Assembly (NCBI GenBank): GCA_002633005.1
Contig: NMRA01000061.1
Coordinates: forward strand, 1-64,000
Direction: 5' to 3'
DNA: 64,000 nucleotides
DNA from: Phoronis australis
Lineage: Eukaryota; Animalia; Phoronida
The translations under genes were made by a program, and so were the position numbers. This document shows, in pieces, positions 7,866 to 47,092 of this stretch (position 1 is the stretch's first letter; each line of letters starts with the position of its first letter). The notes below the pieces were generated by a model. It searched no databases, was not told the origin of the DNA, and was given only the letters and a program-made list of their open reading frames with translations.

Positions 7866-10438
7866 ATGCCAGCGGTATTTTCAAAGCACATGGGCGAACT
7901 TGACAATGGCAATGTAAACAGATATTACACCGAAGTGGTAAAAATGAGCCGTAAAGACACAAAGCGAAGAGTGGCTAAAGTAATGCCCATAATTCAAGAA
8001 CTCTTGCAGTACATCAACAGTCGCGACTCGCGTTTCGCGAAACAGCCAGAGTGTATCGGAAGCTATTGGCAAGGCTTGAAGGTTGAGAAGGCGGATGAGT
8101 TCGACATAAATGTCGATGTACTGGGGTGTCCGAAATTGGTTTATGGTTCATACGAAAAGAAGTTTATCGGTTTCAACAAGGACGTTGAGGATCCAGCACC
8201 TATAAGGGATGATCTTAAGGTAGTCAGGAAATCGTCGCCTCTTCCGATGCCTCCCCCTGGGCATGCACATGTAGTCCTAGGCGGTTCTTATGGTATGCAG
8301 GACTGGGTTGTGGACGGAGTTTTGATACCTTTTCTCGTGAAAAGAACGTTCCACCATCTTCTTCTTGAGGCTATCAGGATGCTAGGCCTTCGAGGTATTG
8401 TAGCAACAAAGGTGTTTTTAGTGCTGTTTTCGCATGATTACACTGCCTACTGTAGACCAAAAGTTTTTATTGCTTCGTGGATCATATAATTATATTAAGA
8501 GGCGTGATAAAGAATACATCAAGTGCTCAAAATTAACTAGAGTTGCGTGAATTTAATCTTAGACAACATTCAAACACTTGCTGGGATATTTTTCATCAAA
8601 AATGTCTTCGATTTTTTGACGTTAATGGCCGGCATAAACGTAGGCCTATGGAACTTTAGAGTGCTCAAAATTAACTAGAGTCACATGAATTTAATCTTAG
8701 ACAACATTCAAACACTTGCTGGGATATTTTTCATCAAAAATGTCTTCGATTTTTTGACGTTAATGGCCGGCATAAACGTAGGCCTATGGAACTTTAGAGT
8801 TCAGGCATGATGGAAAGGGGATTTGGTCAATTTGGAAGGCACGTTTCGCATTTACATTTGACGTAGATCATTCTAAAAATTTGTAGAGTTAGCGACTTGA
8901 ATCGGCAAACACTGAAAACTTAATGAGCCGTTCAAAAATACTTTTAAATTTATAAGTAAATCGAACAGTAAGAGTGAATTTCAAGCCATTTCTGGAAGAC
9001 GAGAGCATAATGCAAACCCACCCGGTTGTTTTGATAACAACTGTAGCTAAACACATACAAACTCTACATTACTGGAGATATTCAACTCATCTCACTCGAC
9101 AAAACAGTTCTCGATTTTTTTCCAAAAGCTTGTTCTTGATATTCTTCTCTTCCAATGTATTTTGAGGTTTCACCTCTTCTTCTCACATACCCTCCGCTGC
9201 AGATTGACCCTTGCCATTTTGATCATCACTACCGTCCATGTTGGACATTTTGGTTTCTCAGCAAACAACTGTTGAGGTCACCACATTGATTTCAAGACAC
9301 TTTAGAAATTTCGGGAATTGCCAATTCTAAACAAAATCACAAAGAAAACCGAGTTTTCTGTTTTCCCTTACTCTGCCTAAATTTGGTAACTTCAAAAAGT
9401 CAACCCTATACACAAAAAAATTATCAAAATGCGTTTTTCGACCCTAAAGCCGAAGGAGTACGATTAAGAAATGGACTCACTTTTTTGTCGATATGTGAGC
9501 AAGCAGCCAGGTCCAGCCCACTTTACATATATTTTTGATATGTTGTTGCTTTTATATTTAGGAAACGTGAGACAAAGTAAATTGGTCCCCGGTACAGCTC
9601 TTACAGTTCACGTCATGGACGAGAGAGGTGGCATTATTGCAGGCGTCGACTTCACGCCAATTTTGAAAACCAACATGGAATTTCCTTCAGCGTGGCCTAA
9701 AGGTAGCGTCGAGTGGCCCTCTCGTGAGAAGATTAGGGCTGTTTTGGCAAAGGGAACGAATGATGCACCCACAAAGAATTTCTGCTGGTGGACGTCTTAC
9801 TCTCAGGCTGACCATGAGTTATGTCACGACATTGACGCAGATGGTGGGTGTCGGAAGCAATGTTTGAGGATGATGAAAAAGATGCGAAGTGACATCTGGT
9901 GTTCATCCAGTAAACCGGTCATTACATCCTATCACTTGAAGGTTAGTATATTGACACTGATTTTACTTCAAATTTTTGAATGGAGGTGAACATCTCTCTA
10001 ATATTCAATGTTAGCCAATGCAGCCGCCCCTCTGCTATCGTTCGCAGTTACGGGAAGAAGCCTCGCGCAAGGCGAAAAGCAGATATTTAGGCCCATGCGC
10101 TTACGAATGAAATTTTTTGTTTTTAAACAAATATATTTGCAAAAGTGTTTTTTATTCTTACAGTTACTTACTTTGTGTATTTACAGAACACTCTTTGGTG
10201 GGAGTGCCAGGAGCGCCCCAACTCGTGGAGCATAGAAAGAGTTGCCTTCAACTTCATCAGTCTCGTTCGTCGTCTCCATGGTTACGTTAAGAAAAGAAGT
10301 CTCCCACTGTACTTCAATCCAAGCGTGAACTTATTCCTCGAAAAATCAGCTGACGATTTGAAGAGGGTGGAACGAAAGCTAGAAGAGTTTTTACAAAACC
10401 CTTCGTACTTCGTTAGAGCAGCATTGTCTGAGGACTGA
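7866..10438 (+). CDS. cGLR: cGAS-like receptor (Mab21/MB21D nucleotidyltransferase), type A gene 1, ~386 aa, 3 exons
   Basis: Exons 7866-8394, 9562-9941, 10187-10438 with GT/AG ends (phases 1, 0) join into one open frame. Motifs: CIGSYWQGLKVEKADEFDINV (G-S-x-E-h-D NTase), VDFTP (third acid), GCRKQCLRMMKK, ITSYHLKN, LPLYFNPSVNLF. These match cGAS/Mab21 family motifs; no vertebrate zinc thumb. Confidence 0.9.
8522..8800. repeat. 138-bp direct tandem duplication in intron 1 of gene 1
   Basis: AGTGCTCAAAATTAACTAGAG... at 8522 and 8660, near identical. Confidence 0.9.
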
Positions 10439-10460
10439 GTACTGAGCCAGAAGAGTTCAG

Positions 10461-13751: not shown

Positions 13752-13841
13752 CACTAAAAGCATTATATTCTCCTGCGGCTGAATGCGAACCGTCACAGTT
13801 AAGCATTTTTCTAGAATTCACAGGACAAACGTATCGACAAG

Positions 13842-16800
13842 ATGCCAGCGACGTTTTCAAAAGACATGGGAGAACTCGATAACGGCAATGTTAACAAATA
13901 TTACACGGAAGTCGTGAAAATGAGTCTCGAAGACACAAAGCGAAGAGTTGCTAAAGTAATGCCGATAGTTCAAGAAATTTTGAAGTACATCAATGGTCGC
14001 GACCCACGTTTCGCAAAACAGCCTGAGTGTATCGGAAGCTATTGGCAAGGCTTGGAGATTGAGAAGGCTGATGAGTTCGACGTCAATGTCGATGTTCTGG
14101 GGTGCTCAGAATTAGTTTACTGCCCAGACAAAAAGAAGTTTATCGGCTTTAACAAGCAGGTGGATGACCCATCTCCGACTATGAGTGATGATTTGACAAT
14201 AGTCTGTAAATCATCACCTCTCCCGGCGTCTGCTCCTGGTTATGAATACATCTACTGGGAAAGTGACAAAGGCGGTTGGGCGGAGTGGATTGTAGATGGT
14301 CTTCTGGTTCCATTTCTGGTGAAAAGAAGGTTTTTCCACCTGCTTCTCGAGGCCATCAGAACCCTGGAACTTCGAGGTTATTTTTATAGCATTCGTTTTT
14401 TGCTTTTCAAGTTATTTATTTCTGAAATTCCATAATTGATGTTAATTCGAACCCAGCCTTTATTCGAATTTGGGTCCAAAGTAGATTTAGAAAACGAGAC
14501 CATTTGATCAGAATTTTACCATACTAACTTACTTGTGTGCATTTCAATATTTCAAATTATCTCTTATTTCTTTCATTTTCCGCATTTTTCCTGAGAGAAA
14601 TGTTTATTGAGATACTCATCAGCAATTCCAATAGTCACTGCTGTTCTTTTTTGGATAACATGAAAAACGAAACTAAGTAGATGGACAGTTGCACCATTGA
14701 TTAAGAAGGTGTACTGTATAACCAAAGTGCTCGAATGACATGGTGATCGCAAATTTAATCTCTGTGTTGATCAGTCTGGATTCTGGCTGTTGTAAAAGCA
14801 TGATTATTGTGCTCTGATGATTTAAATACAACGGTTAGCTTCATTTTCAATTGACCAATCAAAAACCAGAGATCTACACCACATTCTGTCAAGCCGAAGT
14901 GCTAACAGAGTATGGTTTAGAGACTCAGCTGATATAAAATCACTCCTTGAGTTGAAGGTGTTTCTTGAGATTTGCAAAATCTCATCATTCTCATTTGGTT
15001 AATCACAGGTAGTTCAACTCAGACGATTCACTTACCTAAATTCAAGTTTAACATTTGGACAGAACTTGACTTGTTACGCTTTGTATGAACTATGTCTGTG
15101 TCACGACTGCAAATGAGATCTACCGTGTAGGCCCAGATCAATCAACTGGGCAAGCTCCGTTCCGGCCTGTAGGAATTCCGGTGTCGCAATTTTAAGAAGA
15201 TTTCATAACACTGAATATTCACTGTGAATAATTTCCCTTCATTTAGGAAAGGTGAGGCAAAGTAAACTACTCGCCGGTCCAGCTCTCACTGTTCACGTGA
15301 TGGACGAGAAAGGTGACATTGTTGCTGATGTCGACTTCGCACCAAATATGAAATCTGTCCTCGACTTTCCTGTAAAATGGCCCAAAGGTCACGTCGAATG
15401 GCCCTCGCGCGAAAAGATTCAGGCTGTTTTGGCAAAACGAACGAGCATGGTACCAAGGAAGAATTTTTGTTGGTGGCAATCGTACGCGCAAGCAGACCAG
15501 GAGTTGAGCTGCGGTATTGACGCCGATGGTGGTTGCCGGAAGCTGTGTTTGAGGATGATGAAAAAGATGAGGAGTGACGTCTGGTGTTCAACAAGCACAA
15601 CTCTTACGTCCTACCACTTAAAGGTAAGTCCAATACACCAGATCGTGAAGAGTTGAGAACTTGTCATATGGAAACTTACAGACGTTGCGCAATGGTCTAG
15701 TTCCGCCTTCAGTTCTACTCGATAGGGAGTTTCAGCTGCTTGTTGTCAGTTGCATGAAATCAGACCCAGTAGGAACTCAGCTATGTCCCCTAAATTTTTG
15801 GTGCATTTATAGGCATTGTTTTACTCACTAAAGTTATATTTTCTCCAATATTTCATCTTTGGAATGAGCTCTTATTTCACTTATGACATTTTCGAATAGT
15901 ACGCTTGAAATTTGTGCCCTTATTTCAATGAAAATAAACAATGAATATGTCCTCAGTTTATGGGCGTTGCATGAAAAGGTCCCCGATTACTTTCAATGAA
16001 GATGAACTAAGATTTTTAACGTTTATTCTGTTCAGCACATGTCACTATAATAAATGCTTGAGACCACGGTGAGTGCATAAAATGACCCGCTGTGACACCG
16101 AGCTAACTCGTAGAGCCTGGGCCCGGTCTCCAATCTTTTTACTCGAAATGGAACTCGAAATTAGGTTTGGCATTTTCTACTCTACTTTTGGGCGAACTCA
16201 AGATAAGTGTCCATTATTCTATGCTCGAGTACATAATAACTTACGAAGATAATTTATTGCCCTTAGTTCACAGTTTGTAAACCCAATATTAAAGCAATAA
16301 GTTCGAGTTTGAACTCGAAATTTCGAGTTTTTACTCGAGTTTGTAGCACGAATATAAAGATCTTCAAGGGCAAACTTGAACTAGAAACCCCTATGCATAA
16401 ACTATAATGTATTCGAGCACAGTCTGACAACCAATTATCTTAAGTTCGCACAAAAGGAGCAAAGAAATTGCGATAAATAGTTTTGAGTTCGTTTCGAGTA
16501 CAAATATTAGAGACCGGTCTCAAACAATAACGAACTGTCAGTTCTCCGCTAAGAAATGAAACTTGCTCGGAGCATAAAACTCTAGAACTGTAATGCCAAC
16601 TGTCACGTGTGACTCACGTATTCTACCGGTAGAGTTGCGACTCCGAAATTTCACGGGACTGGCCGTAAAATTCTGGTTTTCTGCTCGCTTGAGTTTTGAT
16701 CGAGTGGTGTAGTTCTCAAATTAAGTGTAATTTCATTGTTTCATTTTCATTATGCCATTTTTGTTCATAATGGAATCATCAAGCGAGACTCTTGAGGTTC

Positions 16801-17628
16801 GGGGGCCTCCTTCAAGAAAACTTTCATAGCTATGGGCGGGCCGAGGGGGAGCTTAACAGGAGGGAGGAGGGGGCGCCTAAGGGCGGCGTGACGTTGGCCA
16901 CCGGAGGTTGGTTGTGTTTGAAACTTTGGTTTGCAATAAGAAGTCAATATTATAACCTTTCAAACGTATAACAACAACCACAACGACAAAAGCAGTAAAT
17001 GGAACAACCTGTATTCACTATAAAATAACTAGCTAAAACAGATCAACGCATATATATGTATACACAGACTGCTCTGTCATGATTAAGATCCTTTAGCATA
17101 GGCGGATCTAGGGGGAAGTCAAGGGGGTCCGGCTTTTCCCCTTGATTTTAGTGGTATCAAATCTAGAATTCTTGACTTGGACTCCCTTTTTTTAAAAAAT
17201 CCTGGAATCCTGTGTAGTTATAAATAATAACAACAACGGTGATTCTGGCAATGAAACATAAAAATCAACTATCATTAGGATTATCATAACGGTTACTACA
17301 ATGAGCAAAAACTTGTAATTTGCTGACATTTTTCATTCTTATAGTTACTTACTTTGTGTGTTTACAGAACACTCTTTGGTGGGAGTGCCAAGAGCGCCCC
17401 CACTCGTGGAGCATAGAAAGAGTCGCCTTCAACTTCATCAGTCTCGTTCGTCGTCTCCATGGCTACGTTAAGGAAAGAAGTCTCCCACTGTACTTCAACC
17501 CAAGCGTTAACTTATTCATCGAAACGCCAACTGAGGATTTGAAGACGGTCGAAATAAAGCTAGAAGAGTTTTTACAAAACCCTTCGTACTTCGTTAGAGC
17601 AGCATTGTCTGAGGAGTACAATGAATGA
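13842..17628 (+). CDS. cGLR: cGAS-like receptor, type A gene 2, ~390 aa, 3 exons
   Basis: Exons 13842-14376, 15247-15623, 17368-17628; canonical splice sites, same phases. Motifs GSYWQGLEIEKADEFD, VDFAP, CRKLCL, SYHLK, LPLYFNPSVNL. Confidence 0.9.
16120..16521. mobile_element. Palindromic MITE in intron 2 of gene 2
   Basis: GGCCCGGTCTCCAATCTTTTTACTCGAAATGGAACTCGAAA mirrors TTTTGAGTTCGTTTCGAGTACAAATATTAGAGACCGGTC, with further internal inverted symmetry. Confidence 0.65.
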
Positions 17629-19349
17629 GCTCAAGGTTTTACTCTACTTGCAAAACTATTAAAGGAATTATTTCCTTTACTTTTACCACTTTAGAACACA
17701 GGATAAGATCCTCAGTCGAAAGATACTCTGAAATAGAAACATTTCGTAACTTTCAGTCCTATTTGTGTTTTTCATATCGTTGCTATTAATTTAAAAAAAA
17801 TAAAATAAAGAAGTGGGCGGTGTTTCCACGGAAACGTCGTTGCATATGGCGGCAGTTGAGTGAGTACCCATAATGCATGAGTCAGTTGTCACTCACTACA
17901 GGCGGCTATTTTAGGTGGTGGTGTTTACTTATCTCAAGACGTGCTACTTGTATATTTATGGGCTAATTTAAATATGTATACAGGTCACTGCTTTGTATTG
18001 TATTTTTGATACATCATTTGTGTAATGTTTACATGTGTATTTACTTTATTATTAATTAATCTAACCTGCACATACGATAAATGGAAATATACGATTATTT
18101 TTTTTATTGCTTATTTCACAGTATTATAATATCCATGCTTTCCTGATGCTATGTGAGAGCATCCTAGACTTCACGTACTGTTTTAAACTCACCATTTAAA
18201 GTGATCGTAGATCGATGTTTACTTTTACGTCATCTCACGTGCGATTCCCCAGGCGGCCTTCCTTTTGGAAATTCCCTCAGTACTAGCAGTTTTAATTACC
18301 TGTCTTGCAAAGATTTAGTCATAGTCTATTATTGGGGATTTTGGATTGAACGTTCCCCAAAACGTTTCGAATAATTTGATATGTGCATTTACTAGTCAGC
18401 CAAGTGGTTTGTTTGGGCTGATATTAATCGCTTACCAGAAATTTCACACAGGTCTCCTGCTAGTCCGCGTTCTGCCAATGCCAAAACAAAATTTTAATTT
18501 AGACCACTGCAGAGGTGGATCGTCTCAATGTATAACTTACACCGAGAGCTTTTTGGGCTTGGAAACAACAGACATTTTATTATTGACCCAGATCAAGATC
18601 GACGTATGAGTGAAATGACTCTTTTTGACCCCAGAGGTCGCCTCTGGTTTGAGGAAGGAACAAGTCGAGACCAATGTCAAAAGCAGCCTCAGGAAGGGAA
18701 GTGATTTCAAGCAATAACCAAGTGTCAGATGTTCTTATCAAGCCCACATATCACTTCTAAGTTGAGTAAAAAACAACTCAGACCAATCCTGTAACTGCAC
18801 GTGATAAAAACAAAAGTTGTTCTTGACAGCATGTGGGTTCACAGAGGCTTTAAATCAAATCATCATATCGCAATGCCCCTTGTACCAATGCTCGCATTCG
18901 TGATTCTTGTCATTACCAAACACTTCTAAAACTCAGCTTCTTTCTGTACCAATTTAAAAAATCTCCTCTATTTTAAACGTGTTGATACTCGCCAGACCGC
19001 ACTTGCAAGACACCTACAACCCGAGTAGTCTTTGATGTATGTGAACCAACCTTTACATGCATTGACTGGCTAAGCAAAGACGATGTTTTCACTAACCAAT
19101 TTACAATGTTGATAATATACTTAGCTTTAATTTCTGCCACGTTTCTTTGGTTATAGCTGCTGGGGACACAGGTTTTAAATACGACGAGATTACTAACCCC
19201 GGAACTGTGATACATATCGTACTGTTTTCACGGTGTGAATAGCAGCATATTGACAGAGGCTAAAAGTCAATCATTTTATACTAATAGTGGGGCAACCGTC
19301 ATGTAATTAAAAACAAAAATATTTGTAACGACTGACAACAGGTCCGCAC

Positions 19350-19595
19350 CATGCGCGCACCCAGTCTTTAAAATGGGGGGCTCGAATCTCTGACAAAGTG
19401 GACGTTTTGCTAATAAAAAAGCGGGAGGACTAAAAAAAAAAAACGGTTATCACCTTCAGGTCTGTGAACTCAGTGTGCGTCTGCGCCTTTTGTCTCGTTT
19501 TCTCGGATATTTGTTTCTCTGAGGCGGACCTTTTTACCCACTTCGCCAAATGGGAGGGGGGGGGGCTCGAACGAGCCCCCCTGCGTGCGCGCATG
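19350..19595. mobile_element. TIR element with 5-bp TSD
   Basis: CATGCGCGCAC...GTGCGCGCATG flanked by CGCAC twice. Empty site at ~12557-12570; related truncated copy from ~35153. Confidence 0.7.
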
Positions 19596-19804
19596 CGCAC
19601 ACGACTCTCAGGATATCCTTCAACGTTGCATAACTGCCGTTAATATGTTGATGTTTTTACTTTATCTTCTGACCACTGAACCTAGGCGCGTCTCAGATCC
19701 AAAACTAACCAACCGCGTGATTCGAGTACAAATTTGTACTCGAAGCGCGTCGTGCCGTTGGCCAATTTTCGAATTGAATTTCGTATACAGAGATTAGATT
19801 ACAG

Positions 19805-20050
19805 GCCCCCGTTCCAAGAAACTGACTTAAGTTCATTTTTGACTGAAGTCTAAGATTTGTCTTAACTTTCAAACTTTGGAACTTTCACATAAGGCAATTA
19901 AGTTAGTCAACTTAAAGACAAAACTTAAGTCAAACCCAAAATCAGTTTTTTTATATTGACACGGACTTAAAGATAAATTGAATTTTTATCTTAAAATTGA
20001 AACAAATTTGAGATTTGTCTTAGTTAAGTGAGTTTTCTTGAAACGGGCCC
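19805..20050. mobile_element. MITE family 1, copy 2 (same insertion site as copy 1 in the paralogous intergenic unit)
   Basis: Same TIRs and internal sequence as 12771-13005, with homologous flanks. Confidence 0.75.
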
Positions 20051-20811
20051 CTGGCTCTGATATCAAACGTGGTGCTCTGTGCCAGTCATATACGCGACAA
20101 CTGCCAAAATGCCCTCATAACTGAAAAGTGTCACTCCCAATTCCTAGTTGAACGATTCTTACCCGCTGCGTAAGTACAGCAGGACGCAATCGGACTCCGA
20201 CCGAGCCGTGCAACAGTCAAAAGTTTATCCAACCCAGTAACATGGATCTCAGATTTGCACAATGACTTCAACTGGACTTTATAACCCCCTGAAATTTCCA
20301 AAAAAAAACATTCAGTGAAGCTGAGCATCAGTTGATTTGAAAAACAAGTCCATTAATATTAAATATATTACGGACATGCTCAACGTCATATGCTGGGATA
20401 TGTTCCGCGGTTCATCAATTCAGTTCTTGACACAGCAGGCATGCAGTCAGCGAATACACAATGCCCGTAAAGTGGGTTATTTTCTATAGAGTGACGTCAC
20501 ACGTACCCGTACCACATTGACTAATATGAGAATTTCCCCTAGTCATTCCAAATACGATTGAGCACAATGTTCACTAATGAATGCAGAACATATGTTTACA
20601 GCTTTTTACTCTGGATATAGTCGCTACCATAGACCAGCGTATCTATTGGTGTAATGACAAATGTGATATTTTATTAGAACGATACTCATAAACAAGCGTG
20701 TTCACAACACCAAAGTTTTTTATCAGCAGTTATTGATCAAGACATTAACGGTAACAAAATTGTCGTGTTTTCTCCACATTACTTGAGCGGTAAAAACCCG
20801 GCGTTATCGCC

Positions 20812-20821
20812 GGGATTTTCC
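20812..20821 (+). promoter_or_regulatory. NF-kB-type site upstream of gene 3
   Basis: GGGATTTTCC 98 bp before the ATG, followed by CATATATT. CRE TGACGTCA at 20492-20499. Confidence 0.55.
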
Positions 20822-20909
20822 CATTTCAAAGCATATATTCGACTACGACTGGATTCGAAGCCAAACAGTTACGCACTTCTAGCACACCTATGAAAAACGC
20901 ACCGACAAG

Positions 20910-24287: not shown

Positions 24288-24520
24288 GGTTTTCTGATGG
24301 TGGGACTTACAGATTGTATTATCACTTTTTTGGCTTTTAATGTTTTCACAAGTTCCGATATCTCTAACCGTCAATAGACAGCTATAAAACTAGACAAAAT
24401 TGTTAGGCTGGTTTTGGTGTTCATCGTTTTTATTCGAAAAGGCAGGCGTGTGTCTTAGTTTGCAAAACGATTTCTATGAATATCCATTCCAACAGAGCCT
24501 TTTTAACGTGAACTTATCAG

Positions 24521-24522
<2 letters not shown>

Positions 24523-24551
<29 letters not shown>
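24523..24551. repeat. (CA)n microsatellite
   Basis: Direct observation. Confidence 0.9.
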
Positions 24552-24554
<3 letters not shown>

Positions 24555-25148: not shown

Positions 25149-25243
25149 GCACTGCGGGGACAGAGCCAGTGCCATGCGGCGCACACTCGTGGGATGCACT
25201 GCGGGGACAGAGCCAGTGCCTTGCTGCGCACACTCGTGGGATG
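25149..25243. repeat. 47-bp tandem duplication
   Basis: GCACTGCGGGGACAGAGCCAGTGCC...GCACACTCGTGGGAT twice. Confidence 0.8.
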
Positions 25244-33557: not shown

Positions 33558-36423
33558 AATGAATGAGCTCAAGGTAGTTTTATTCGTAAACTACAATTTC
33601 CTTTACAGTTACCACTTCAGAACGCAAGATAAGATCCTCAGTCGAAAGATACCACTGAAACATAAACGTGTCGTAACTTTCAGCCCTGTTTGTGTTTGCC
33701 TTATTGTTACTATTAATTTATAAAAATAAAATAAAGAAGTGGGCGGTATTTCCACGGAAACCTCGTTACGTATGCATGAGGCAGTTGAGTTAGTCCCCAT
33801 AATGCACGAGACAGTTGTCACTCACTACGGCGGCTATTTTAGGTGGTGGTGCACCACCAAAAATAAATATTTAACTAAAAAAATCCTATTTAATGCTGCT
33901 AAGTTTGAAAATATTTGGAGATGTGTGAATGAACATTATTTGGACTTAAGTTTCAACTAAACTTACGTCGGCTAAATTCGTTTTATGAAGTTTTAAATCA
34001 AAATGAAAAGGAAAGAGTATCTATAAAATGGCAACGAAAAGTGAAACTATGAAGTAAATAACCCACAGATTAAGCGATTAACTGTTTAAAAACAATTTTA
34101 CCCATAAAGTACTTTAACTGTGGTACATTTCTTGTCTGAACAGATTAGTCAGAATTAGTGTTAAATTAAGGGACTCAACAACAATCAATTTGCGTTTTTA
34201 ACGTTTGGTTTTCATTCCCTGTCGAATGACAACAATCAGCTGCCAACTTTTTCCATAGTGGCTTATCCTTATACGAAAGTGCTTTGTTACTATCATTCAT
34301 GTCACTCCGTCATGATCCATGCTAGATTTTTTCTTCCAACTTATATTTGTTCAACATAGGACAAACTACTTTTGTATTTGTGAGCTTATATAAATGTGTA
34401 TACAGGTTACTGCTTTGTATTGTAGAATGTTTACAAAAGGTTTTTACCTATTAGTAGCATTAGTGTCACCAGCACATATGATAAATGGAAATATACGATT
34501 ATTTTTATTGATGGCTTATTTCACAGTATAACAATATCCATGCTTTCCTGAAGCTGTGTGAGAGCATCCTATGCGTAACATACCGTTTAGATCGTTTTAC
34601 GCCATCTCACGTGACTACATTCCCCAGGCGGTCTTCCTTTTGTAAATTCCCTCAGTACTAGCAGTTTTAACAAGCTGACGTCTCGCTGAAATTTAGTCGT
34701 AGTCTATTATTGAGGATTTTGGATGGAACGTTCCGCAAAACGTTTCGAATAATTTGGTAGGTCAATTAATATGTGCATTTACTAGTCAACCAAAGTGGTT
34801 TGTTTGGGCTGATATTAATCGCTTACCAGAAATTTCACACAGATCTGCTACTCGCGTTCTACCGGCAAAGAAACGAAATGCAGATGTGGATCGTCTCAAT
34901 ATATAACTTACACCCTTACAAGTTTTTGGGCCTGGAAACAACGGACATTTTGTTATTGACCCAGAGGATGCTCGACATATGAAATAACTCTCTTTGACAA
35001 GATGCTGAGCCTGATCATGCAATAACGAGCTGTGCGTTCTTTCCACCCCCAGAGGTCGCCTCTGGTGTAAGGAAGGAACAAGGCGAGATCAATTTCAAAA
35101 GCAACCTCAGGATCTCAAGCAATAAAAATGCCAGATGTCAAGCCCACTAGATCATGCGCGCACATACAGAGGAGCTCGAATTTTTCGGTATGCGTACCTT
35201 TTACTGACAAAAACCAACGAGGACCAAAAAAACCGGGCCACTAGGTTCAGGCTTACGAATCATTTGAATGTGTGTCCGCGCAGATTTCCTATGAACTTTT
35301 GTCTCGTTTACTAGGACTTTTTGTTGCTTTGAACGTGTAGAATATCACCAGACCGCACTTGCAAGACACCTACAACCCGAGTAGTCGTTGATGTATGTGA
35401 ACCAGCCTTTACGTGCATTGATTGGCTAGAAAGCAAAAACGATGTTTTCATTAACCAATTTACAATGTTGATGATATGTTAAGGTTTAATTGCTGTCACA
35501 TTTCATTGGTTTTAGCTGCTGGGGACACCGATTTCAGATATGACGAGATTACTAACTCTAAAACTGTGATACTATCGTACGGCTTTCACGGTTTGAATAA
35601 CAACATAATGACAGAGACCAAAAGTCAACCGTTTTTATTTTGTGATTTATAACTATTGGAAACTAAATATAAATCGTGAATCGAATAACACTCTAAGCCC
35701 AGACTCGACTCCGACCTAAAACTAACCGATCGCATGATTCGAGTACAACTTTGTTAGTTAACTAGCCTCATGTAATGCTGTTGGTCCATTTTCGAATTGA
35801 ATTTCGAATACAGAGACACCTGGCCATGGTGTCAAACGTTCTCATCACTGAAAAGCGTTACTCCAAATTCTCAGATGAACAATTCTTACCCGCTGAATAA
35901 CAACAGCAGGACGCAATCGGGCTCAAACCGAGTGGTGCAACAGTCTAAAGTTCAACCCGATAACATGTATCTCACATATGCACAATAACTTCAACTGGCT
36001 GAAATTTCCAAGAAAAACATAAATGAAGCTGGGCATCAGTTGATTTGAAAACAACTCCATTCATATTAAATGTATTACGGACCTGCTAAATGCCATATAT
36101 GACGGGGTATGTTCCCTGGTTCATCGATTCAGTGGTCGAAACATGCAGTCATACGAATGCACAATGCCCGTAATGTGGGTTATTTTCTGTAGAGTAACGT
36201 CACGCGAACCCGTCCACACTGATTATGAAAATATCTCCATCATTCTAAAATAGCATTAAACACTACGATTGAGTATATGACGCAATGTTCAACAGATCAA
36301 ATGTTTACAGCTTCTTACTGGGTATGCATTTCTTACTGGATTAGTCACGATCATGAATCCAGCGTATCTATGTGTGTAATGACAAAATTAACGTGACCGG
36401 TAAAAAAGACCGGAGTTATCGCC

Positions 36424-36433
36424 GGGATTTTCC
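36424..36433 (+). promoter_or_regulatory. NF-kB-type site upstream of gene 5
   Basis: GGGATTTTCC 104 bp before the ATG, followed by CATATATT. Confidence 0.55.
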
Positions 36434-36527
36434 CATGTCAAAGCATATATTCCCCTACGACTGGATTCGAAGCAAAACGCTTACGCACTTTTCTAGAATT
36501 CATACCTAGGAAAAACGCATCGACAAG

Positions 36528-39050
36528 ATGCCAGCGACGCTTTCAAAGGACATGGGGGAACTCGATAACGGTGATGTTAACAGATATTACGCAGAAGTCG
36601 TGAAAATGAGTCGTAAAGACACAAAGCGAAGGGTGGCTGAAGTGATGCCGATAGTTCAAGAAATTTTACAGTACATCAATGGTCGCGACTCACGTTTCGC
36701 AAAACAGCCAGATTGTATCGGGAGCTATTGGCAAGGATTGAAGGTTGAAAAAGCTGATGAGTTTGACATAAATGTCGATGTTCTGGGGTGCCCAAATTTA
36801 GTTCCGACTTTTTCAAAAGAAAAGTTCATAGGCTTCAACAAACACGTCGATGACCCATCGCCGACTTTGAGTGATGACTTGGAGATAGTCCGCAAATTGT
36901 CACCGCTTCCTTCGGCTCCCGAAGGTCATCAGTATATTTACGTAGTTGAAGACGGATGTGGTATGGAGGACTGGACTGTGGGCGGAGTCCTGATACCATT
37001 TCGTATGAAGAGAACCTTTCACCATCTTCTTGTTGAGGCTATCAGGATGCTAGGTCTGCGAGGTATACGCTGTTTAATGGTTTATTGTATTATTTTACAC
37101 ATTTACAAATAAATTGTAATATAAACACAATTTCTGAAAATCGGACACTTTAAGAACTCTCAATTGGGTAAGTGAATGACGCAAGGAAATGCGATCGCAA
37201 TGGTTACTTCGTTGTCAGTCGTTAAAAGACGGCTAACAGACATTCGTAGTTTGTCTATTCATTCTAACATCTATTTGCTTCATTTATTTAGGAAAGGTGA
37301 GGCAAAACAAACTGGTCGCCGGTACTGCTTTAACAGTTCACGTGATGGACGAGAGAGGTCGCATAATTGCTGATGTCGACTTCGCACCAATTCTGAAATC
37401 CGTCGCTGATTTCCCTGTGAGTTGGCCTAAAGATCACGTCGCGTGGCCATCGCACGAAAAGATTCAAGCTGTTCTGGCAAAGCGAACGAGCAGAGTACCA
37501 AGCAAGAATTTCTGCTGGTGGATTTCATACGCACAAGCGGACCACGAGTTGTGCAAAGACATTGATGCCGATGGTGGTTGCCGGAAGCAATGTTTGAGGA
37601 TGATGAAAAAAATGAAGAGTGACGTCTGGTGTTCATCGAGAAAAACTCTTACGTCGTACCACCTAAAGGTAAATCCAAGAGTCCTGCTAGTTAAGGTGTG
37701 CACGGCAATAAGACGTGCACTTACTGCTTTGTTAGGTCATGTGTTGACGTAAAGAATTTCGCTTAATGTGCGCGACGAGCACGGGTGAACGCTTTGTTTC
37801 CTTGAACCGAACCACAGCTTGTGTGCAATTTGATGAGACATTGCTGCCGTTGTTTCACTACCATTACCAGTCCACAATCACCACCATCAACACGTACCAT
37901 TCATTCCATGGCTGCCGCAAAAAAATAAAACAGTAAGAGCGTAGGGAAATGGTGAGTTTATTAATTAACCCCGGTAATTAAAATTATACGGATGAATAAA
38001 GATTTAAATGTGTGCAGTTTTAGTGTTACCAACACCGTTTTTTTAATGATTGTCACGTTTTTCCCCGTGTGTGGATGGGCACAGGCTGTTACAGACCGGT
38101 GCTAATAGCTTTCGGTGCGACGTTGACTGAAGACTGGTTCGAGTTAATCCTTTATTAATCCCGATCGTACGTTCACGAGCCTACTCAAACAAAACGTCCG
38201 ACGTAATGTCTGTTTATGCTCCAGTCAGTGCTGCGAAGCCTTGACTTGTGATGCCCTTCTGAAACACATTCAGCAACTGTTGCACTCGTCGATTCAATAA
38301 CCTGCTGTCTCTATAGCTGGCTCTCTATTGACTATCGCTGTAACTGCTGATTCTCTTCACTGCAACTGAACTGTAATTATCCTGATTAACTTTCTTGAAC
38401 TGACTTGATCTCATCTAACACAAACCCGTGCTTGTGTATTTATACTAGTCTAATGCATTGTTCTGGAACTTTACATCAATTCAAGCCCATTCTAGAAGTT
38501 TCCTGAATCTAACCAATCATTCTACAAACATATACTAGTCTCTAGAATATTCCAGACTGCATTAACCACTGTCATGCTGGAGTCTTCTAGAAAGTTCCAC
38601 ACTATACTGCAGTAAATAAATTACGTCATCACCACTACTAGAAAGTTCCATACTGATCTGTAGTAAACACATTACATCATCATTGTACTTAACTCAGGGG
38701 TCATGCCAATCAAACTGAATAACAAAACAAAACAAAACAATACAACTAATAATACTGTCAGACTATATTCTGACAAAGATAATAGTTACATTTTTGTTCT
38801 TTTATGCTTACAGAACATCCTTTGGTGGGAGTGTCAGGAGCGCCCTCACTCGTGGACCATAGAAAGAGTTGCGTTCAATTTCATCAGCCTAGTTCGTCGT
38901 CTCCATGGCAGCGTCAAGAAAAGACACTTACCCTTATATTTCAATCCTGACGTGAACTTACTTCAGGAAAAATCAGATGGAGAGTTGAAGAAGGTCCAGG
39001 GCAATTTAGAGGAGTTTCTGCAAAATCCTTCGTACTTCATTCAAGTATAG
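36528..39050 (+). CDS. cGLR: cGAS-like receptor, type A gene 5, ~382 aa, 3 exons
   Basis: Exons 36528-37062, 37292-37668, 38814-39050; canonical splice sites; intact GSYWQGLKVEKADEFD, VDFAP and SYHLK. Paralogue of gene 3. Confidence 0.9.
38051..38775 (-). mobile_element. Solo LTR in intron 2 of gene 5
   Basis: TGTCA...TGACA termini, imperfect 5-bp TSD ATGAT/AAGAT, absent at the paralogous site (~24013-24020). TATAAA and AATAAA on the minus strand. Confidence 0.7.
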
Positions 39051-39264
39051 GATTTTTTGATGGTGGGACTTACAGATTGTATTATATTTTTGAATGTCGG
39101 CGATCATGTGAGATTGCTGCTGGTCTGGTAAAGTCATCACAAGGACCGCAATGTTGAATATTCGTCATCATTTATGTTGCACTCCAGGCCATCCCCTAAC
39201 AGTACATATACAAGACATGTACAATACAATACACGAGGACACATACGCGCGCACGTGAGCCCAT

Positions 39265-39400
39265 TGGTCGAGATGGGAAGACGTATATCTGTTGATAAAT
39301 ATCTACGTATATGTTCATTATGTAAACAAAGCTCTAGTAAAAATTTTGTGGAAGACGAATTTCACTTCATTTGTGTATGTCCTACTATGATTTGGAAATA
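39265..39400 (+). mobile_element. LINE 3'-end fragment
   Basis: EMGR...RICSLC...VEDEFHFICVCP, the Cys/His C-terminal motif of non-LTR ORF2. Confidence 0.55.
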
Positions 39401-40684
39401 AGATTGCTGCCTAACTTATATTGGATCAACCCAAGTGATTGCTTTATTAAGTTAGTGTTGTGCATTGTTAGCGTATAATAAATTTGCTTGTATTCGGATG
39501 TATATTAAAAGCTCTTTCAATAGCCTCTTTAAAACCTTAATTGCTGAATTTTTAATGTTTTCACAAGACAACTGTTTGGAAATCTGTAACCGTCGATATA
39601 CACCTATAAAAGTAGACAAAAATGTCAGGCTGGTTTTGCTGTTCATCGTTTTTGCGCAAAAAGACGGACGTGTCTCTGGTTACAAAACGATTTCTGCGAA
39701 TACCCATATCAACAACGCCCTTTTAACATGAACTAATTAGATCTGAACACACAGACGTTAATTAGGGTGCTAATTTTAACATTTGGAAATGTATGACCCA
39801 TGTTACCTTGACCCACTATTACTCTCACAAAAAGTACTGGTCACCACTATAACAAGGATTATTTTGGCAGCAGTCACTCCTATAAGCAGAATTCATTGAA
39901 CTGAATACATGACAGTGTTGAGAGAGAGGGAGAGGGAGAGGGGGGAGGGAGGGAGTTGGGGGGAAGTGAGGGAGAGGTAACACTTTTGTTTGCACTAAGA
40001 CATAACACATTAAAGGCAAAGTCAACCTTTTTTCTTGTCACTTTTCGCAAAAATAAGGTTCGTTGATTATCCCAGACACATTTTTCACTTAATTACAGCT
40101 TTTCGTAATTTTATTAATTTCTCGTCTTCTACTCCAGAAGTGACGTTTTGGGAGGCAAGGGTTTCGCGCCAATTTCTTTTCACTATAGTCTGACTGTGAG
40201 AGCTGTCGAGTCAGTCATTGTTCTACCTCGGTTGTGATAAATTCGGTCGTCGTTTGCTTTTGTTTACAAGTCAGTCAACGTGCCACGCTGTTGCAACGTG
40301 CCGGGATGTACTCATTATCGTCTCACACGCGCTTTGGGTACCTTGCGTCACTTTCCGAAGGATGACACATTTCGCCGTACTTCGCTAGCTCGTTCATGTG
40401 AAGAACGCAGCACTACCCGCGTCCAGGCAACGTACAAAGCAGTGGAGGGTTACCGAGTGTGTGGCAAGCATTTTCTGCCGTCATGTTAAGACAGAGATTT
40501 GTACGCTGAATTAATGAAGGTCGCTGCGAAACAACGCCTGAAGAAGGGTACCATACCGTCGCTGTTGATTACCGGCAGTGCCCCGTCGCCAACCCCGAGA
40601 AATGCGTTTTTGAAGCGGGAAGCCTCGCGATCGAACTGTGGCCACAGTGACTGGCACTTCAACTGTCACCCGTGCCTCCGAACG

Positions 40685-41563
40685 CAGTGGCGGATCTAGG
40701 ATGTCACAAGGGGGGCCAACTTTTTGTCCGGCTGTAAGCATTTGCGCAAACTGAACCACGAAACGGAGAACGTGTGGAACAGAAAAAACTGCCACCACAT
40801 AAGCCTCGAACCCACGGTCTGGCGGATAGGAAGCGCGTGCATTACCACTAGACCATCACGACTTCACTACAAGTCTCTTAGAAAGAGACTTACTTATTTA
40901 TGGTCCACAGCGTTTGCGCGCGAAACCTACTTCTTTTTGTAATTCTTATTACACGTTTCATATTTTGTGCCATCAATTCTTAACAAATTTGTCGTATTTA
41001 AAATAGTCTTCAAATGCCCAAAAGACCAAATCCGTTTTTCGTGTTGGCAATAATGACGGGGTTGCTTTGGAAATCGTCTTAAGATAAGGTTTGCCAAAGA
41101 GAGTATTGCGAGTTTCTGAGTGATTCAATAAGGTTTCGATTAAACACATCTTACCAGCAGCTTCTGTTTTTCATCGTCACTCAGATTCCATTTTCTTTAA
41201 AAAAATGATGTAAATTTTCTTCATTGCACAGTGGAGCAGACGACGGAAACGGAGTCGTAGTGCGCAGCGCCACTGCCGGTCGCCTAGGATATCGCGGGAG
41301 AGCCTATACTTAGCCAAAGTTCCGTTACGAATGCGCCGTGTTCCGAATTTGACACTTGAAATTGGATTTGAGCCCCCCCCCTCACCCCCCGCCCCAACAC
41401 TAAAACTGCACACATTTAAATCTTTTTTCATCCGTCTAATTTTAATTACCGGGGTTAATTAATAAACTCAACATTTCCCTACACCCTTACTGTTTTATTT
41501 TTTTGCGGCAGCCAAGGGGGGGGGGGCGGGTCCCCTGGGCCGCCCCCCCTAAATCCGCCTATG
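40685..41563. mobile_element. Non-autonomous TIR element nested in the Kolobok-like element (hAT-like termini, 5-bp TSD)
   Basis: CAGTGGCGGATCTAGG...CCTAAATCCGCCTATG flanked by GAACG at 40680-40684 and 41564-41568. Confidence 0.65.
40800..40862 (-). repeat. tRNA-derived (SINE-like) segment
   Basis: Minus strand has A-box-like TGGTCTAGTGG and B-box-like GGTTCGAGGC at tRNA spacing, inside a mobile element, with no clean acceptor stem. Confidence 0.45.
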
Positions 41564-42439
41564 GAACGTACCCCATTGCGTGCAATTCCGGGAACTAGCA
41601 GTGATTCGCCCTGTGCTGTTGTCTCTAGCCCAGAGCCCGTAAGCAGCCCTGCAGCAATGTTGAGTAGTGGGAGTGAATGCAGGCCCAGTTCGACACCCAG
41701 TGAAGAGGACAGTTCGTCATCCAATGAACAGATCGGTGAGCCTAAGTTTGATAAGTTTATTGCGGACTTGTATTGAAGCTATTTAGAAGGTGCCAGATGT
41801 GTGGCGATCGAGGGAGTCACACAGCGGGATGTAAGCAGTTTGGGTGCTCAGATCACCCTCCAATGGGAGTGTGTCGCGGGACACTCGGGCAAGTGGGGCA
41901 GTTCTTCCTCTGTACGTGAGACGACAATGAGTACATCTCAGAACTCAGCAATAGCGTGGCATGTTGACTGACTCGTAACCAAAAGCAAACGACGACCGAA
42001 CTTATCACAATTAGGTAGAACAATGACTGACTCGACTGCTCTCACAGTCGGACTACATGAAAAGAAATTGGCGCGAAATTCCTGCCTCCCAAAAAGGTCA
42101 CTTCCGGAGTAGACGACGAGTAATTAATTAAATTACGAAAAGCAGTAAATAAGTGAAAAATATGTCTGGGATAATCAACGAACCTTATTTTTGCTAAAAA
42201 TGACATGAAAAAAGGTTGCCTTTGCCTTTAACTGATGATTATCATATATGTAAAATAAGATTATATTTTCAGAGGTTCAAATGCTCCATGCATTTACTTA
42301 AAGACATGTGATAATTCGGTAATTTGTGTTTTGAAAAAGATGAAAGGGGTGGAGTGACTTGGTTAGGTCAAAATCTAAATTACGTTCTTACAAGACTTTC
42401 AAAATCCGAATACTGTGCTGAAAACTATGCCTTTCTTTC

Positions 42440-42610
42440 CGTTACATTGAGACCTGTGTTAGCACAGGTGCGATCAGGAATTTTGCCAGTAGAGGTACAA
42501 TTAGGGATTTTTTTTCGGGAACTCCATTAAATGAAAGACTATGTTAAGTATGTAACCAAAATTTAATTGAAGACGAAATACATTTTATGTTCTTTTGCAA
42601 CGGATATGAT
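42440..42610 (+). mobile_element. LINE 3'-end fragment
   Basis: LAQVRSGILPVEVQLG...ERLC..CNQNLIEDEIHFMFFC with stop/frameshift. Confidence 0.55.
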
Positions 42611-43749
42611 AGTTTAAGAACAGTTTCCAAGGGAATGCACCCTTCTAGACTTGTTTCTAAATTACCTGGAAGCTCTTTCGACGTTTTTGTTTAGCACTAG
42701 ATTGTCACAGGAATTGTCAATATTGTGTGTAACCGTTTGGATGTTTATTAGTATCAGGTGACCCAAGAGGCTAGGGATGTGCTGCACGTAAAGTTTATTT
42801 ATTTTTGTATTGTATTCTGTGATGCATCGATGTAACCATAACAAATAAATATAATACAATGCTTAATAAATTGCAAACTAAATTAGGAGGCCTTCTAAAG
42901 GTTTTCGACCTCCAACAAGTTCTCTTCAGCTTACATAGATTAACAGATGTAAAATAGAAAAATTAATGAGAATGAATATAATAAGCCAAAGGAAGAGGAG
43001 ACAAAAAATTGTGAGATATACTTAAGAAAATACATAAATTGTCGGCTGTATTTAGAGACCACGATCAAGTCTCATGTTCAGACAGGATATAAAATCAAAT
43101 AATGATTGACAGCAATAGGTCACAAAAGGTCACAACGCAAGTGCGAGCGAGTAGTAAAACAGGAAATAGACGCAACGGGAGGCACCGAGGGAACAAAACC
43201 AGCCTGCGGGGCTCAACCGTGGGAGTTTGTTCAACAATGGATGTTCAGCCGCTTAAAGTAGAGTACGCGGTGTATTTCGTGAAATTCATTACACCTTCAT
43301 TCTGCTAGTTTTTTGACTTTTAAGCCTTTTAAAAAAGGATATATGGCGCATTTTGGGGAATCACTGTTGGATGGAATAACCTTGACCAGAGCTATAAAAC
43401 AACAAAATCCGTTGTGTTTTGGGGATTTAATAACAACTCGCTGGGACAGAAACTTTGATTTGTGAATTAGAAATCAGAGTATAACTGAGCAAACTGATAA
43501 CAACAAATACGACGAAAACAACAGGATAAAAGCAGCAACACCAACAACAATAACAACAATCCAAACAGCTTAAAATACTCAAACGGGTGTAAAAGATAAT
43601 GCCAAAACAATGACTGATGACGTTTCACTTTGATATGACACTGAGTCAAACAACATCCTTTGCAAAGTCCAATAAACAACTTCGTTGTTATGCAAATTAG
43701 AAATATATTCAAATTTCCTAATTAAAAAAGTGGAATATCATCAAAGAAG

Positions 43750-43969
43750 GTGGTGGCCTTTTGGAGCACGTGACTGAGTGATGGCCTTTGGGAGCACGTG
43801 ACTGAGTGATGGCCTTTAGGAGCACGTGANCCTTTGGGTGCACGTGACTGAGTGGTGGCCTTTGGGTGCACGTGACTGAGTGGTGGCCTTTGGGTGCACG
43901 TGACTGAGTGGTGGCCTTTGGGAGCACGTGACTGAGTGGTGGCCTTTGGGAGCACGTGACTGAGTGGCC
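43750..43969. repeat. 28-bp minisatellite, about 8 units, each with CACGTGA
   Basis: Unit GTGGTGGCCTTTGGG(A/T)GCACGTGACTGA; contains an N at 43830, so copy number is uncertain. Confidence 0.9.
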
Positions 43970-44718
43970 GGTTCCGTTCCGCCGGGTCACCGACTAAGAC
44001 AGATTGGCTCTCAATGACGACATCCGGCTTATACATACCAATCCAATGTCTTAGCTGACGCAACCAAGTCATTCAGCCAGGTTAGGACCCTAGAATAACC
44101 CGACCTGTTTCTAAGAATTTGTGCGGTACTGGATTCTCGGACCACTAAGTTTGTTGGTTCGAGCTGCATTTATTGGTCTATTCATAGACCACTTATACAA
44201 CAACACTATTGTTTGCTCTTTACACGTGGCATCGTGTTTAATAATATCATCCTCAGCACAATATCCTGAATTATTTATTAGCAATTGGTGACGAAGGGCT
44301 ACAAGTCTTTTGTTAAGGTGTGTTTTCCCCATTTAAGTAAATGAACAATAGGCAACAAAATAATCTAGCGTGACAGACAATAAGCCCGGTCTCTTGAAGC
44401 AGATTTTGAGATTTTGGGCCTCCAGTTGCAATGTGCGTTTATTTTCGCCACCATCGTCATATTTTCGACCTTTAGGTGCACGCGGAAGTTCGTCATGACT
44501 CGGGTAAAACACTGAATGACAAAGAAAGCTGGGAATCGACGTGGCACGACGTGGCACAGCATAAAAGGCCAACGGTTTTGGTTTTTCCTACTAGAAACTT
44601 TCCCATGACGAAGAAAAAGTCCTCTTTTCATTTATAATCTCCTCTTACCGGAGTCGCTCTCAAACTTCTCCACTGACGCGGCAACCGAAGTAACGCTTGG
44701 ACACTAAACTTATCCACA

Positions 44719-47092
44719 ATGCCAGGGATCTTTTCCAAAGACATGGGTGAGATCGACAACGGTATTTTCAACAAACTCTACAATACCGATGTTAGGACGA
44801 CCAAACAGGAAACCCAATCAAAAATTGAAGAAGTTAAGTCAACCTTAAACAGGGTCCTCCAGCACGTAAATCGTATCGATGAACGTTTTGGGAACTGTGT
44901 CGATTCCGTCGCAGTGAAGAATCCCGGTACTTTCGATATAAAAGTTGAAATCAAAGACTTCGACGTGGTTTTGAATCATGCCAAACGCAGTGTGCCGCTT
45001 GGCGTTGGTCCTACCGGCTATTTGGGCGCAGGACAGGCCAGTGCAGCAACACAGCTGGCACAGGGTACAAGAGTGCCCATCGTTCAATACCCGCGTTTGC
45101 AGAGAAAGGCACCTTCTTGCCAAATCCATTACAGGAAGCACCAACCGGATATAGATGCTTGAAATTGAATGAAGTGCCAGTTTCATTACACAAATGGAAT
45201 AAGTGGCTTGAGGGAGGTATCCTGGTGCCAGAGTTCGTGAGGAGAACTTTTGTCCACCTGGTCAACGAAGCCATAAGAGCCCAAGGTCTGCAAGGTAAGA
45301 AAGATGAAATTGTTTTTATGAGAATTATCTCAGTGTGCATCCGTACGAGTTTGTACACTACGTCTAGTGAAGAGGAATCGGGCTGCCGGATTATAGAGCA
45401 GAGCTGGTCAGAGAGAAATTTGTGGCGGGCAGAATTGCCTTTCGATGGGGTATGTGCTGACAAATTTCATGAGAGCCGCAGAGGGAAACATGGTATCGTC
45501 TTGCATCAAAGGGGAATTCCCCGCTGTTTAGGTGTAAACGTCGAATTCTTATCCGAAGCGATTATCCGAAGCGATTTAATTGTCACTAGTGATTTCATTA
45601 CATTTGATTGTATTTCTTTTTGAACTTAGAGCTGATCAGGCAAAGCGAACTGGCACCAGAAGACACCATGAACTTTCAAGTAATGGATGAACGCGATGAA
45701 TTTCTGGCGAACGTCACTTTCATTCCGGTCTTAAAATCAGTAGCCGAATTCCATCCTCAGGGGGCGCTGATGGATGGAGCAGCATGGCCACCACCAGACA
45801 AAGTACAAGCCATCGAGCGAACCAGAATAGATCTTGACCTGTCGCCAGAATGCAAATACTTTTGGAGGGAGAACTACGCACAAGCAGACGACTTGCTCAG
45901 CGCTAGCATTGATACCGATGGAGGATGTCGCAAACAATGCTTAGAAGTCATGGCAAAAATGAAGAACGACTTCTGGTGTCCATCTACAAAACCAATCATA
46001 AGTGACGACCACTTGAAGGTAATCTATTACGGCATAACATACCGGTAGTATTGTGAAAACGGACAATTTCCGCGAATAAATTTTGAGATAGCCTAAATAT
46101 CTAGTTAATAGTTAATAATGTACTTGATAAAAATGGATATTCCAAACCGCTAGCACCATATAAAATCGAAAATCTTGATTCTGCCATTAACTGTTCGCTG
46201 CGCAGTTGAAATTGGTTAAAGTTGCACACAACTCGCATTTTGTGACACCGAAGAATTGTCCAAAAATATGAATATCATGAATATTGCATTCAAAAATCCA
46301 CAACTATCGATAGTTACCTAATGGCTCGTTCGCCGAGTTTTAGATGGACATCGTTGGTTACTGAGTGACATCTCAGCTGCAAAAGATGCCGTGCTAAAAA
46401 AATTCCATTTGCTCTGAGTTTACATTTGCTTTCCAAAAAGAGCACCGGTTTTTTTTAGAGACACGCCGGAGTGTGTACATAGTTGAGTTCGTCTCACGAA
46501 AGATCCTGTTAAGAGATAAACCGTTTTGTTTTGGTGATTTTATTACAAATCGGCAATCTTTTACTTTTGTCTGCCAACTATTCGCTGAAATTAAAGCCGG
46601 TGACCCTAAATGTTCTGCTATTGTACCGAGAAGCGTTTAGCTGTGTCAACAAAGCGTTAGATTGCGACCGCGGGGTTCCTGCCTTCCATTCCGAGTTGGG
46701 TCTGATCCCAGAAAACGGCTTTTCTCACTTTAAACCCTTATCAAATGTAGGCATCGTGAAAATTTGGAATTCTTATGTCGTGGAAATTGTAGGCTAATGT
46801 TCACCATAAGAAATATTCTTGAAATGTGTTTTTTTAATGTTTTCTGTTGTAGAATGTTCTGTGGTGGGAATGCCAAGCACATCCTGAGCTGTGGGACGTG
46901 GAGCGAGCACCATATTACTTCATCCGTCTCGTGCGGCGTTTTCATAGTTACGTGAAGGACGGAAATTTGCCAGGGTTTTTCAATTCGTCTGTGAACCTGT
47001 TATCTGAAACTCCGCCGCATGGTCTTGAAGCCCTGCAAGAAAAAATAGATGAATTTCAGAGAAATCCCGCATATTTCATGAAAGCCTTCTAA
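44719..47092 (+). pseudogene. Catalytically degenerate cGLR (type B gene 6) with a frameshift in exon 1 as assembled
   Basis: Exons 44719-45294, 45630-46018, 46853-47092 (NVLWWECQAHPELWDVERAPYY...LPGFFNSSVNLL...). Homology to gene 4 switches frame between about 45010 and 45080. Confidence 0.7.

Follow-up and report, generated by a model that had tools for sequence, protein, structure and literature searches.

A 64 kb window from the phoronid Phoronis australis (positions 1 to 64,000 of contig NMRA01000061.1, assembly GCA_002633005.1; GC content 40%, four single Ns) carries an array of genes for Mab21-fold proteins resembling cGAS-like receptors (cGLRs). Four of these genes, A1 to A4, encode a complete nucleotidyltransferase (NTase) active site, and two, B1 and B2, have lost it. 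All Mab21-like pieces lie on the plus strand within 7866-47092, as established by tblastn and a six-frame profile search of the window, and the latter found no further cGLR exons beyond the 21 known pieces (next best expectation value, E, 0.09). The gene models follow from splicing at GT-AG sites. A1 (7866..10438, exons 7866-8394, 9562-9941 and 10187-10438, 386 aa), A2 (13842..17628, exons 13842-14376, 15247-15623 and 17368-17628, 390 aa) and A3 (20910..24287, exons 20910-21435, 21668-22044 and 24051-24287, 379 aa) are followed by exons 1 and 2 of B1 (28537..30576, exons 28537-29074 and 30188-30576), by A4 (36528..39050, exons 36528-37062, 37292-37668 and 38814-39050, 382 aa) and by B2 (44719..47092, exons 44719-45294, 45630-46018 and 46853-47092). 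The genes are arranged head-to-tail, 3.0-5.7 kb apart, and their GT-AG introns are first of phase 1, then of phase 0, at equal protein positions across the array; in A1-A4 the phase-1 intron comes after about 177 codons and the phase-0 intron after a YHLK motif. An earlier note on this DNA had described six co-oriented three-exon genes with identical intron phases. Strand and phases hold, but six intact genes are not present: B1 is without an exon 3 of its own, B2 is frameshifted and the A3 model spans a single N, i.e. an assembly gap, at 22393.

Pfam Mab-21_C, which the note had proposed as a check together with Mab-21, is found above cut-off in all five exon-3 pieces submitted (B2 exon 3, E 1.8e-10), while the Mab-21 NTase model gave weak matches under cut-off in 3 of 18 pieces and none on exons 1-2 of the B genes. 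A profile built from 32 of 34 database homologues, excluding array sequences and proteins longer than 600 aa, scores 263-278 bits with the spliced A models and 177-178 bits with the B models over profile positions 11-379, which cover both lobes; the best of 120 shuffles reached 1.7 bits. Homology of A1-A4 takes in the NTase core as well as the helix bundle. In the Protein Data Bank (PDB), the best sequence match of the exon-1 profile is 8GJY, the Stylophora pistillata receptor Sp-cGLR1 (E 5.6e-8), and that of the exon-2 profile is 8GJW, named cGAS-like receptor 1. A search with a profile of exon 1 from the four A genes and one B gene yielded 131 representative relatives. The best are around 40% identical to A and include a chiton protein labelled mab-21-like 3 (XP_064609855.1) and relative P0001 (40% to A), for which Sp-cGLR1 is again the best PDB sequence match (E 2.6e-35). 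The predicted fold of P0001 (predicted local distance difference test score, pLDDT, 81) has template modelling (TM) scores of 0.63-0.73 to MAB21L1, Sp-cGLR1 (0.69) and cGAS. A quick tree places the chiton protein, P0001 and P0038 together with the array (Shimodaira-Hasegawa-like approximate likelihood ratio support 95). Similarity is lost right after YHLK in the predicted proteins P0009 and P0011, suggesting that these share the second intron position of the array. B1 exon 1 folded alone gave a low-confidence model (pLDDT 58.6) and a fold search with it no match above noise; an ESM Atlas search with the same exon gave no usable match. Among longer proteins, word-based searches with B1 exon 1 and A3 exon 1 yielded no homologue either, which is weak evidence, and a metagenome scan returned a single distant 2.3 kb locus without neighbours.

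The names attached to these relatives raise the question of whether B or even the whole cluster encodes a non-immune Mab21-like adaptor acting in development or cell-type specification, as do vertebrate MAB21L1-3. The nearest named homologues bear the label 'protein mab-21-like 3', MAB21L1 ranks first among the fold matches of the P0001 model, and the vertebrate proteins combine altered active sites (PMC4897736; bioRxiv 10.1101/2023.02.22.529553) with developmental roles (PMC4897736). Vertebrate MAB21L3 is also among the top exon-2 matches. However, our trees, which held no cGAS or MAB21L1 outgroup and one of which left out proteins longer than 600 aa, do not join the array to MAB21L3 (open nodes), and the label is an automatic name rather than a statement of orthology. 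The invertebrate proteins in question (the chiton protein and hemichordate P0004 and P0005), together with the unnamed P0001, P0011 and P0038, are about 33-41% identical to A, have the complete motif and include none of the B type. Furthermore, Sp-cGLR1, the best PDB sequence match of both the exon-1 profile and P0001, is a sensor of double-stranded RNA (dsRNA), and rapid turnover, mosaic exons and kappaB sites (see below) fit immune genes. We therefore regard a non-immune adaptor as improbable.

GS-X11-EFD and VDF are present in all four A proteins (G65-S66, E78, D80 and D206 in A1), the third Asp having been placed via P0001 aligned to porcine cGAS and Sp-cGLR1. A1-A4 also keep the equivalents, mapped through P0001, of K414, Y436 and K439 of human cGAS, the roles of which are described in PMC4897736. 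With the residues GS, [DE]h[DE] and h[DE]h in 4/4 genes plus homology over two lobes, the identification of the A genes as cGLRs is supported. They resemble Sp-cGLR1, which is activated by dsRNA and makes 3'3'-cUA (Li et al., bioRxiv 10.1101/2023.02.22.529553), in GS, E-x-D, the third Asp, Lys and Tyr, but differ from it in a longer loop before the third Asp. The division into four genes with and two without a complete active site is likewise as first described. In both B1 and B2, GS is changed to DS, Glu to N/T, the third Asp to T, the K414 equivalent to A and the Y436 equivalent to D, and the two share a deletion of seven residues across the activation loop. Because the catalytic residues, the K414 and Y436 equivalents and residues of the activation loop are lost, B is predicted to be non-catalytic and should neither bind nucleoside triphosphates (NTPs) properly nor catalyse. 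Vertebrate MAB21L1/2/3 and MiD51 set a precedent for a Mab21 fold without the full catalytic set, and B likewise keeps the fold. MAB21L1, however, retains the donor-NTP Lys and Tyr and two acids, which B has lost as well, and unlike MAB21L proteins and MiD51, B is the independent product of a fast-evolving immune array, in which a null allele of it segregates.

The calculated isoelectric points (pI) are 9.2 for A1, 6.4 for A2, 8.8 for A3, 8.7 for A4, 6.3 for B1 joined to the orphan exon described below and 5.8 for B2. The basic values of A1, A3 and A4 fit the pattern of nucleic-acid-sensing cGLRs, which have pI values above 8.5 (Li et al., bioRxiv 10.1101/2023.02.22.529553). B could in principle act as a sponge, capturing the activating nucleic acid or a different ligand in competition with A; the spine region is net positive in B1 (+4) and B2 (+2) as it is in A (+3 to +6), and B1 and B2 differ from each other most in exon 1. 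Yet the middle part of B is net negative, the whole-protein pI is 5.8-6.3 and B transcript depth stays below A4-type depth in 3/3 RNA runs, making a ligand sponge very unlikely.

B is not fresh junk. Over 279 alignable codons, with a divergent loop and the frameshift region excluded, the ratio of nonsynonymous to synonymous substitution rates (dN/dS) between B1 and B2 is 0.35 (confidence interval, CI, 0.24-0.54; Fisher p ~1e-6), as compared with 0.17-0.22 for pairs of A genes, and for exon 1 it is 0.29-0.31. When neutral substitution was simulated at the exon-1 distance, both frames remained stop-free in 2 of 5000 simulations. The catalytic losses are common to the two B copies, so what was constrained here was already a dead enzyme. 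A tree of exons 1-2 unites A and B in a single clade (100/98); the stem leading to B is 1.04 changes per site long versus 0.33 for A, while the tips of B1 and B2 (0.15) are like those of A. B is a long-standing sister lineage to A and a real pseudo-enzyme, as had been proposed: the losses are shared, the frame has been under constraint and the gene is spliced and transcribed. We infer that it split from A before the radiation of A1-A4, changed fast and then settled at A-like rates.

The A-then-B order occurs twice (A3-B1 and A4-B2), as had been pointed out, but not as an independent recurrence. Self-BLAST revealed two colinear copies of a block of about 16 kb that begins inside A2 intron 2: the first (17256..33189) comprises A2 exon 3, A3 and B1, and the second (33195..49179) an orphan exon 3, A4 and B2. 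One tandem duplication thus accounts for the second A-B unit and for the orphan exon, and the segmental duplication that the earlier note had allowed for as an alternative cause is the one that applies. Divergence within the blocks is mosaic: synonymous divergence (dS) between B1 and B2 is 0.54-0.60 in exon 1 and 0.09 in exon 2, equal to that of the adjacent intron, and dS between A3 and A4 is about 0.29, 0.29 and 0.14 in exons 1, 2 and 3. This points to conversion or unequal exchange, processes that are usual in immune arrays. We also considered that the two A-B blocks are two haplotypes of one locus and rejected this, as their non-coding DNA is 7-17% apart versus 2.5-4% at overlaps flanking the single-N joins, and each block is represented by a further allele in the read contigs.

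In paired sensor/helper NLRs an active and a non-catalytic paralogue are linked, and an enzyme/pseudo-enzyme module of this kind had been suggested for the array. A and B would then form an obligate sensor/executor or enzyme/regulator pair inherited as a unit, in keeping with B being conserved, transcribed and twice adjacent to an A gene. Both adjacencies, however, stem from one duplication, four A genes face two damaged B genes, and the arrangement is head-to-tail without sequence similarity between A and B upstream regions; neither the head-to-head layout nor the co-expression of paired NLRs is seen, nor is a conserved pairing. The relatives speak against it as well. In an alignment of 130, GS plus acid-x-acid is present in 111 and altered in 12, and seven do not cover the motif; complete enzymes hence make up 111 of the 123 relatives whose sequence includes the N-terminal motif, and the B type is not represented. 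No B orthologue was seen among all 131: a higher score with B than with A was obtained for one only, at 27.7 bits.

On this haplotype, each of the two B copies carries damage of its own. B1 has an open frame over exons 1-2, but its own exon 3 was removed by a deletion at 31375..31385, where about 720 bp are missing relative to B2. B1-type read contigs from X1 and X2, two sequencing runs of one DNA sample, diverge from the B2 sequence at 46816, which is the deletion point. The only in-phase exon 3 downstream of B1 exon 2 is the A2-type orphan left at the duplication breakpoint (33306..33557, plus strand), which differs at 16/234 nt from A1, at 16/234 from A2 and at 93/234 from B2 and has flanks matching those of A2. 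It is likely that B1 splices to this exon and is thus a chimeric gene. B2, by contrast, has three exons of its own, but exon 1 is 576 nt long, which is not 3n+1, and the allele in the window is frameshifted at around 45030-45084 and stops at 45160 after 147 aa. An assembly or consensus error is excluded by a contig of raw X2 reads that equals 44739-45734 with 0 differences over 996 letters. A contig from X1 over 44728-45445 shows two substitutions and five missing letters and represents a second allele. Bin-depth arithmetic, which reproduces three X2 bins exactly for another gap, places at least part of the five-letter gap within 44985-45081, in agreement with a single five-letter event. The second B2 allele is therefore probably in frame. 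In an X2 contig, a 22-letter gap (46773-46968) is placed by depth arithmetic within intron 2 of B2, immediately before the acceptor site of exon 3.

Transcription was followed in three RNA runs (X5, X6 and X7) that carry the same species label, belong to one study and derive from different samples than the DNA; a portion of 18-19% of every run was read and mapped on 28000-47500 at 88% likeness. Depth lies on the mate strand expected for plus-strand transcripts. A4 has reads in 3/3 runs, with depths in the exon-1 bin of 28 (X5), 22 (X6) and 8 (X7) that may include A3 reads. The exon-1 bin of B1 has depths of 0, 0.1 and 2.9, so that A and B show opposite trends over the three runs. B2 was mapped at 80% likeness with X6 and X7 only, and in X7, one of these two, three reads carry the splice joint 45294-45630. 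At diagnostic sites, the X7 exon-2 reads on B2 are mostly of the B1 type (5/5, 7/7, 11/11, 5/6 and 6/7), and X7 contains reads identical to B1. The first 390 bp of intron 2 have a depth of 0, and the B-type exon 3 reaches 0.9 at most. B1 transcripts are therefore spliced to something else than a B exon 3, most simply the orphan exon. The orphan-exon bin is highest in X7, with a depth of 12.6 versus 7.8 and 5.5 in the two other runs; orphan-like reads are present also in X5, where B1 exon 1 has none. At 44928, four of five X7 reads carry the letter of the second B2 allele, and the cleanest of them has no other difference. Transcription of B, the absence of which had been named as refuting the proposal, is hence documented in X7, though B is near-silent in two of the three runs. 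This near-silence, in runs with abundant A4-type reads, and the lack of a B orthologue among the 131 relatives make an obligate NLR-like pair quite unlikely. The paired-module idea loses its main support because the order repeats via one duplication and expression is uncoupled.

Upstream of the A genes we noted matches to the kappaB consensus. The site of A1 (7756..7765, plus strand) lies 110 bp upstream of the ATG, and equivalents are found at 13743 (A2), 20812 (A3) and 36424 (A4), such that all four A genes have a site 98-110 bp upstream of the start codon. It is kept in front of A1 even though the DNA upstream of this gene no longer aligns by BLAST. The window contains 17 matches at 12 places, as compared with 2.8 expected and with 0 of 100 shuffles, duplicated copies not being independent. 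At the aligned place, B1 and B2 have only the 3' half of the proximal site; other matches are present at 28150 for B1 and in intron 1 of B2, and A and B share no upstream sequence at the BLAST level. Judged by these motifs, the A genes are likely to be NF-kappaB-inducible; the matches support an immune role for A and changed control of B.

Taken together, we favor, with a probability of about 0.45, a birth-and-death cGLR cluster in which B would be a dispensable, lineage-specific modulator or decoy and not an obligate partner. A1-A4 would be the likely sensors, responding to double-stranded nucleic acid or some other ligand by producing a cyclic dinucleotide for STING. B, having kept the fold and a helical lobe interchangeable with that of A, would be an acidic protein that should not bind NTP; it might titrate a binding partner of A, be it A itself, a host regulator or a pathogen antagonist, instead of signalling or competing for nucleic acid, and it would be regulated separately from A following loss of the proximal kappaB site. 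Several points weigh against this interpretation. The RNA stems from three samples of one study, and low B depth could reflect alleles or tissue. A junction between B1 and the orphan exon is absent among the splice joints displayed. A2, with its pI of 6.4, is not basic among basic paralogues, hinting at a different ligand. In the cGLR motif of Li et al. (bioRxiv 10.1101/2023.02.22.529553), Q or T precedes GS and X50-90 the third acid; A has I before GS, and its third-Asp spacing of 123 aa (A1) exceeds that range; the proven enzyme Sp-cGLR1 also departs from the motif, with K before GS and a spacing of about 102 residues. Finally, dN/dS between B1 and B2 for exon 2 only is 0.56 (CI 0.22-2.04), not different from 1, and the damage to the two B copies of this haplotype fits decay too.

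By the latter account, B had a non-catalytic role in the past, and both copies are now becoming pseudogenes that do nothing for A. Loss of exon 3 in B1, the frameshifted B2 allele of the window, low or absent expression in two of three RNA runs, an exon-2 ratio compatible with 1 and the missing orthologue in 131 relatives agree with it. The open frame of B1, spliced and with an in-phase exon 3 downstream, does not, nor does the exon-1 ratio of 0.29-0.31; moreover, the B2-type reads in X7 carry the single-nucleotide polymorphisms of the other allele, which is probably intact as judged from the four of five reads at 44928 and the depth arithmetic. We consider ongoing decay less likely. A more far-reaching possibility is that B is a natural pseudo-cGLR acting on the active receptors encoded in the same array, to which it binds and whose threshold it sets, B1 having been kept via the captured A-type C-terminal exon; this would be the first dedicated dead-enzyme regulator of cGLR signalling and is, for now, an unlikely proposition. 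The cluster itself is of a known kind; what is new is a selected and transcribed pseudo-cGLR with one probably chimeric and one polymorphic-null copy.

Some further features of the window deserve mention. A second copy of A3 exon 2 and of the 3' part of A3 exon 1 is located at 22702..23640 (plus strand) and is 94.9% identical to 21117-22392; the introns of A3 and of this copy differ by about 3%. Overlaps at two further single-N joins diverge by 3.9% (51106) and 2.5% (58035), and because of this resemblance the copy is most likely the other haplotype retained at an assembly join; possibly, it is a disrupted allele or a seventh gene. The 308 bp at 22394-22701 are unmatched elsewhere in the window and run up to the second A3 exon 1, which they join right behind the GS codons; they may be an insertion that disrupts the other A3 allele. 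Near-identical overlaps around single Ns at 50148-52069 and 57504-58555 (96-97% at aligned sites) are likely haplotype overlaps retained in the assembly. A high-copy element with terminal inverted repeats of 318 bp (89%) resides between A4 and B2 (40010-42231), and its inner piece 41396-41517 is 95% identical to 37906-38027 in A4 intron 2. Upstream of B1, a broken reverse-transcriptase fragment is situated on the minus strand at 27525-27894 (Pfam RVT_1, E 5e-5, under cut-off). A 291-codon open frame on the plus strand (51948-52820) holds a 306 bp two-copy repeat and has no Pfam match. The neighbouring gene on the minus strand (61899-63998) contains a DUF4706 exon (E 5.5e-15) and a 337-codon Ser-rich frame.

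cGLRs have been defined by a complete active site and occur in large expansions (Li et al., bioRxiv 10.1101/2023.02.22.529553). Surveys of cGLRs retained only proteins with complete active sites, leaving selected dead paralogues in immune arrays uncounted. A natural dead cGLR paralogue acting as a regulator is not mentioned in the accessible parts of PMC8410604 (Slavik 2021), 10.1101/2023.05.08.539652 (Drosophila c-di-GMP), PMC10917227 and PMC10855445, nor is a dead paralogue described beside the Sp-cGLR1 gene in those of its source; our literature search, mostly outside subscription journals, found no selected dead cGLR paralogue in an immune array. Should B do nothing, the locus would be a case of ordinary cGLR turnover. 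If the capture of an A-type exon by B1 is true, cGLR lobes would be swapped as modules. The array from P. australis provides a close set of active and dead enzymes, around 39-50% identical and with the same introns, for asking whether pseudo-cGLRs tune or shield cGLR-STING signalling.

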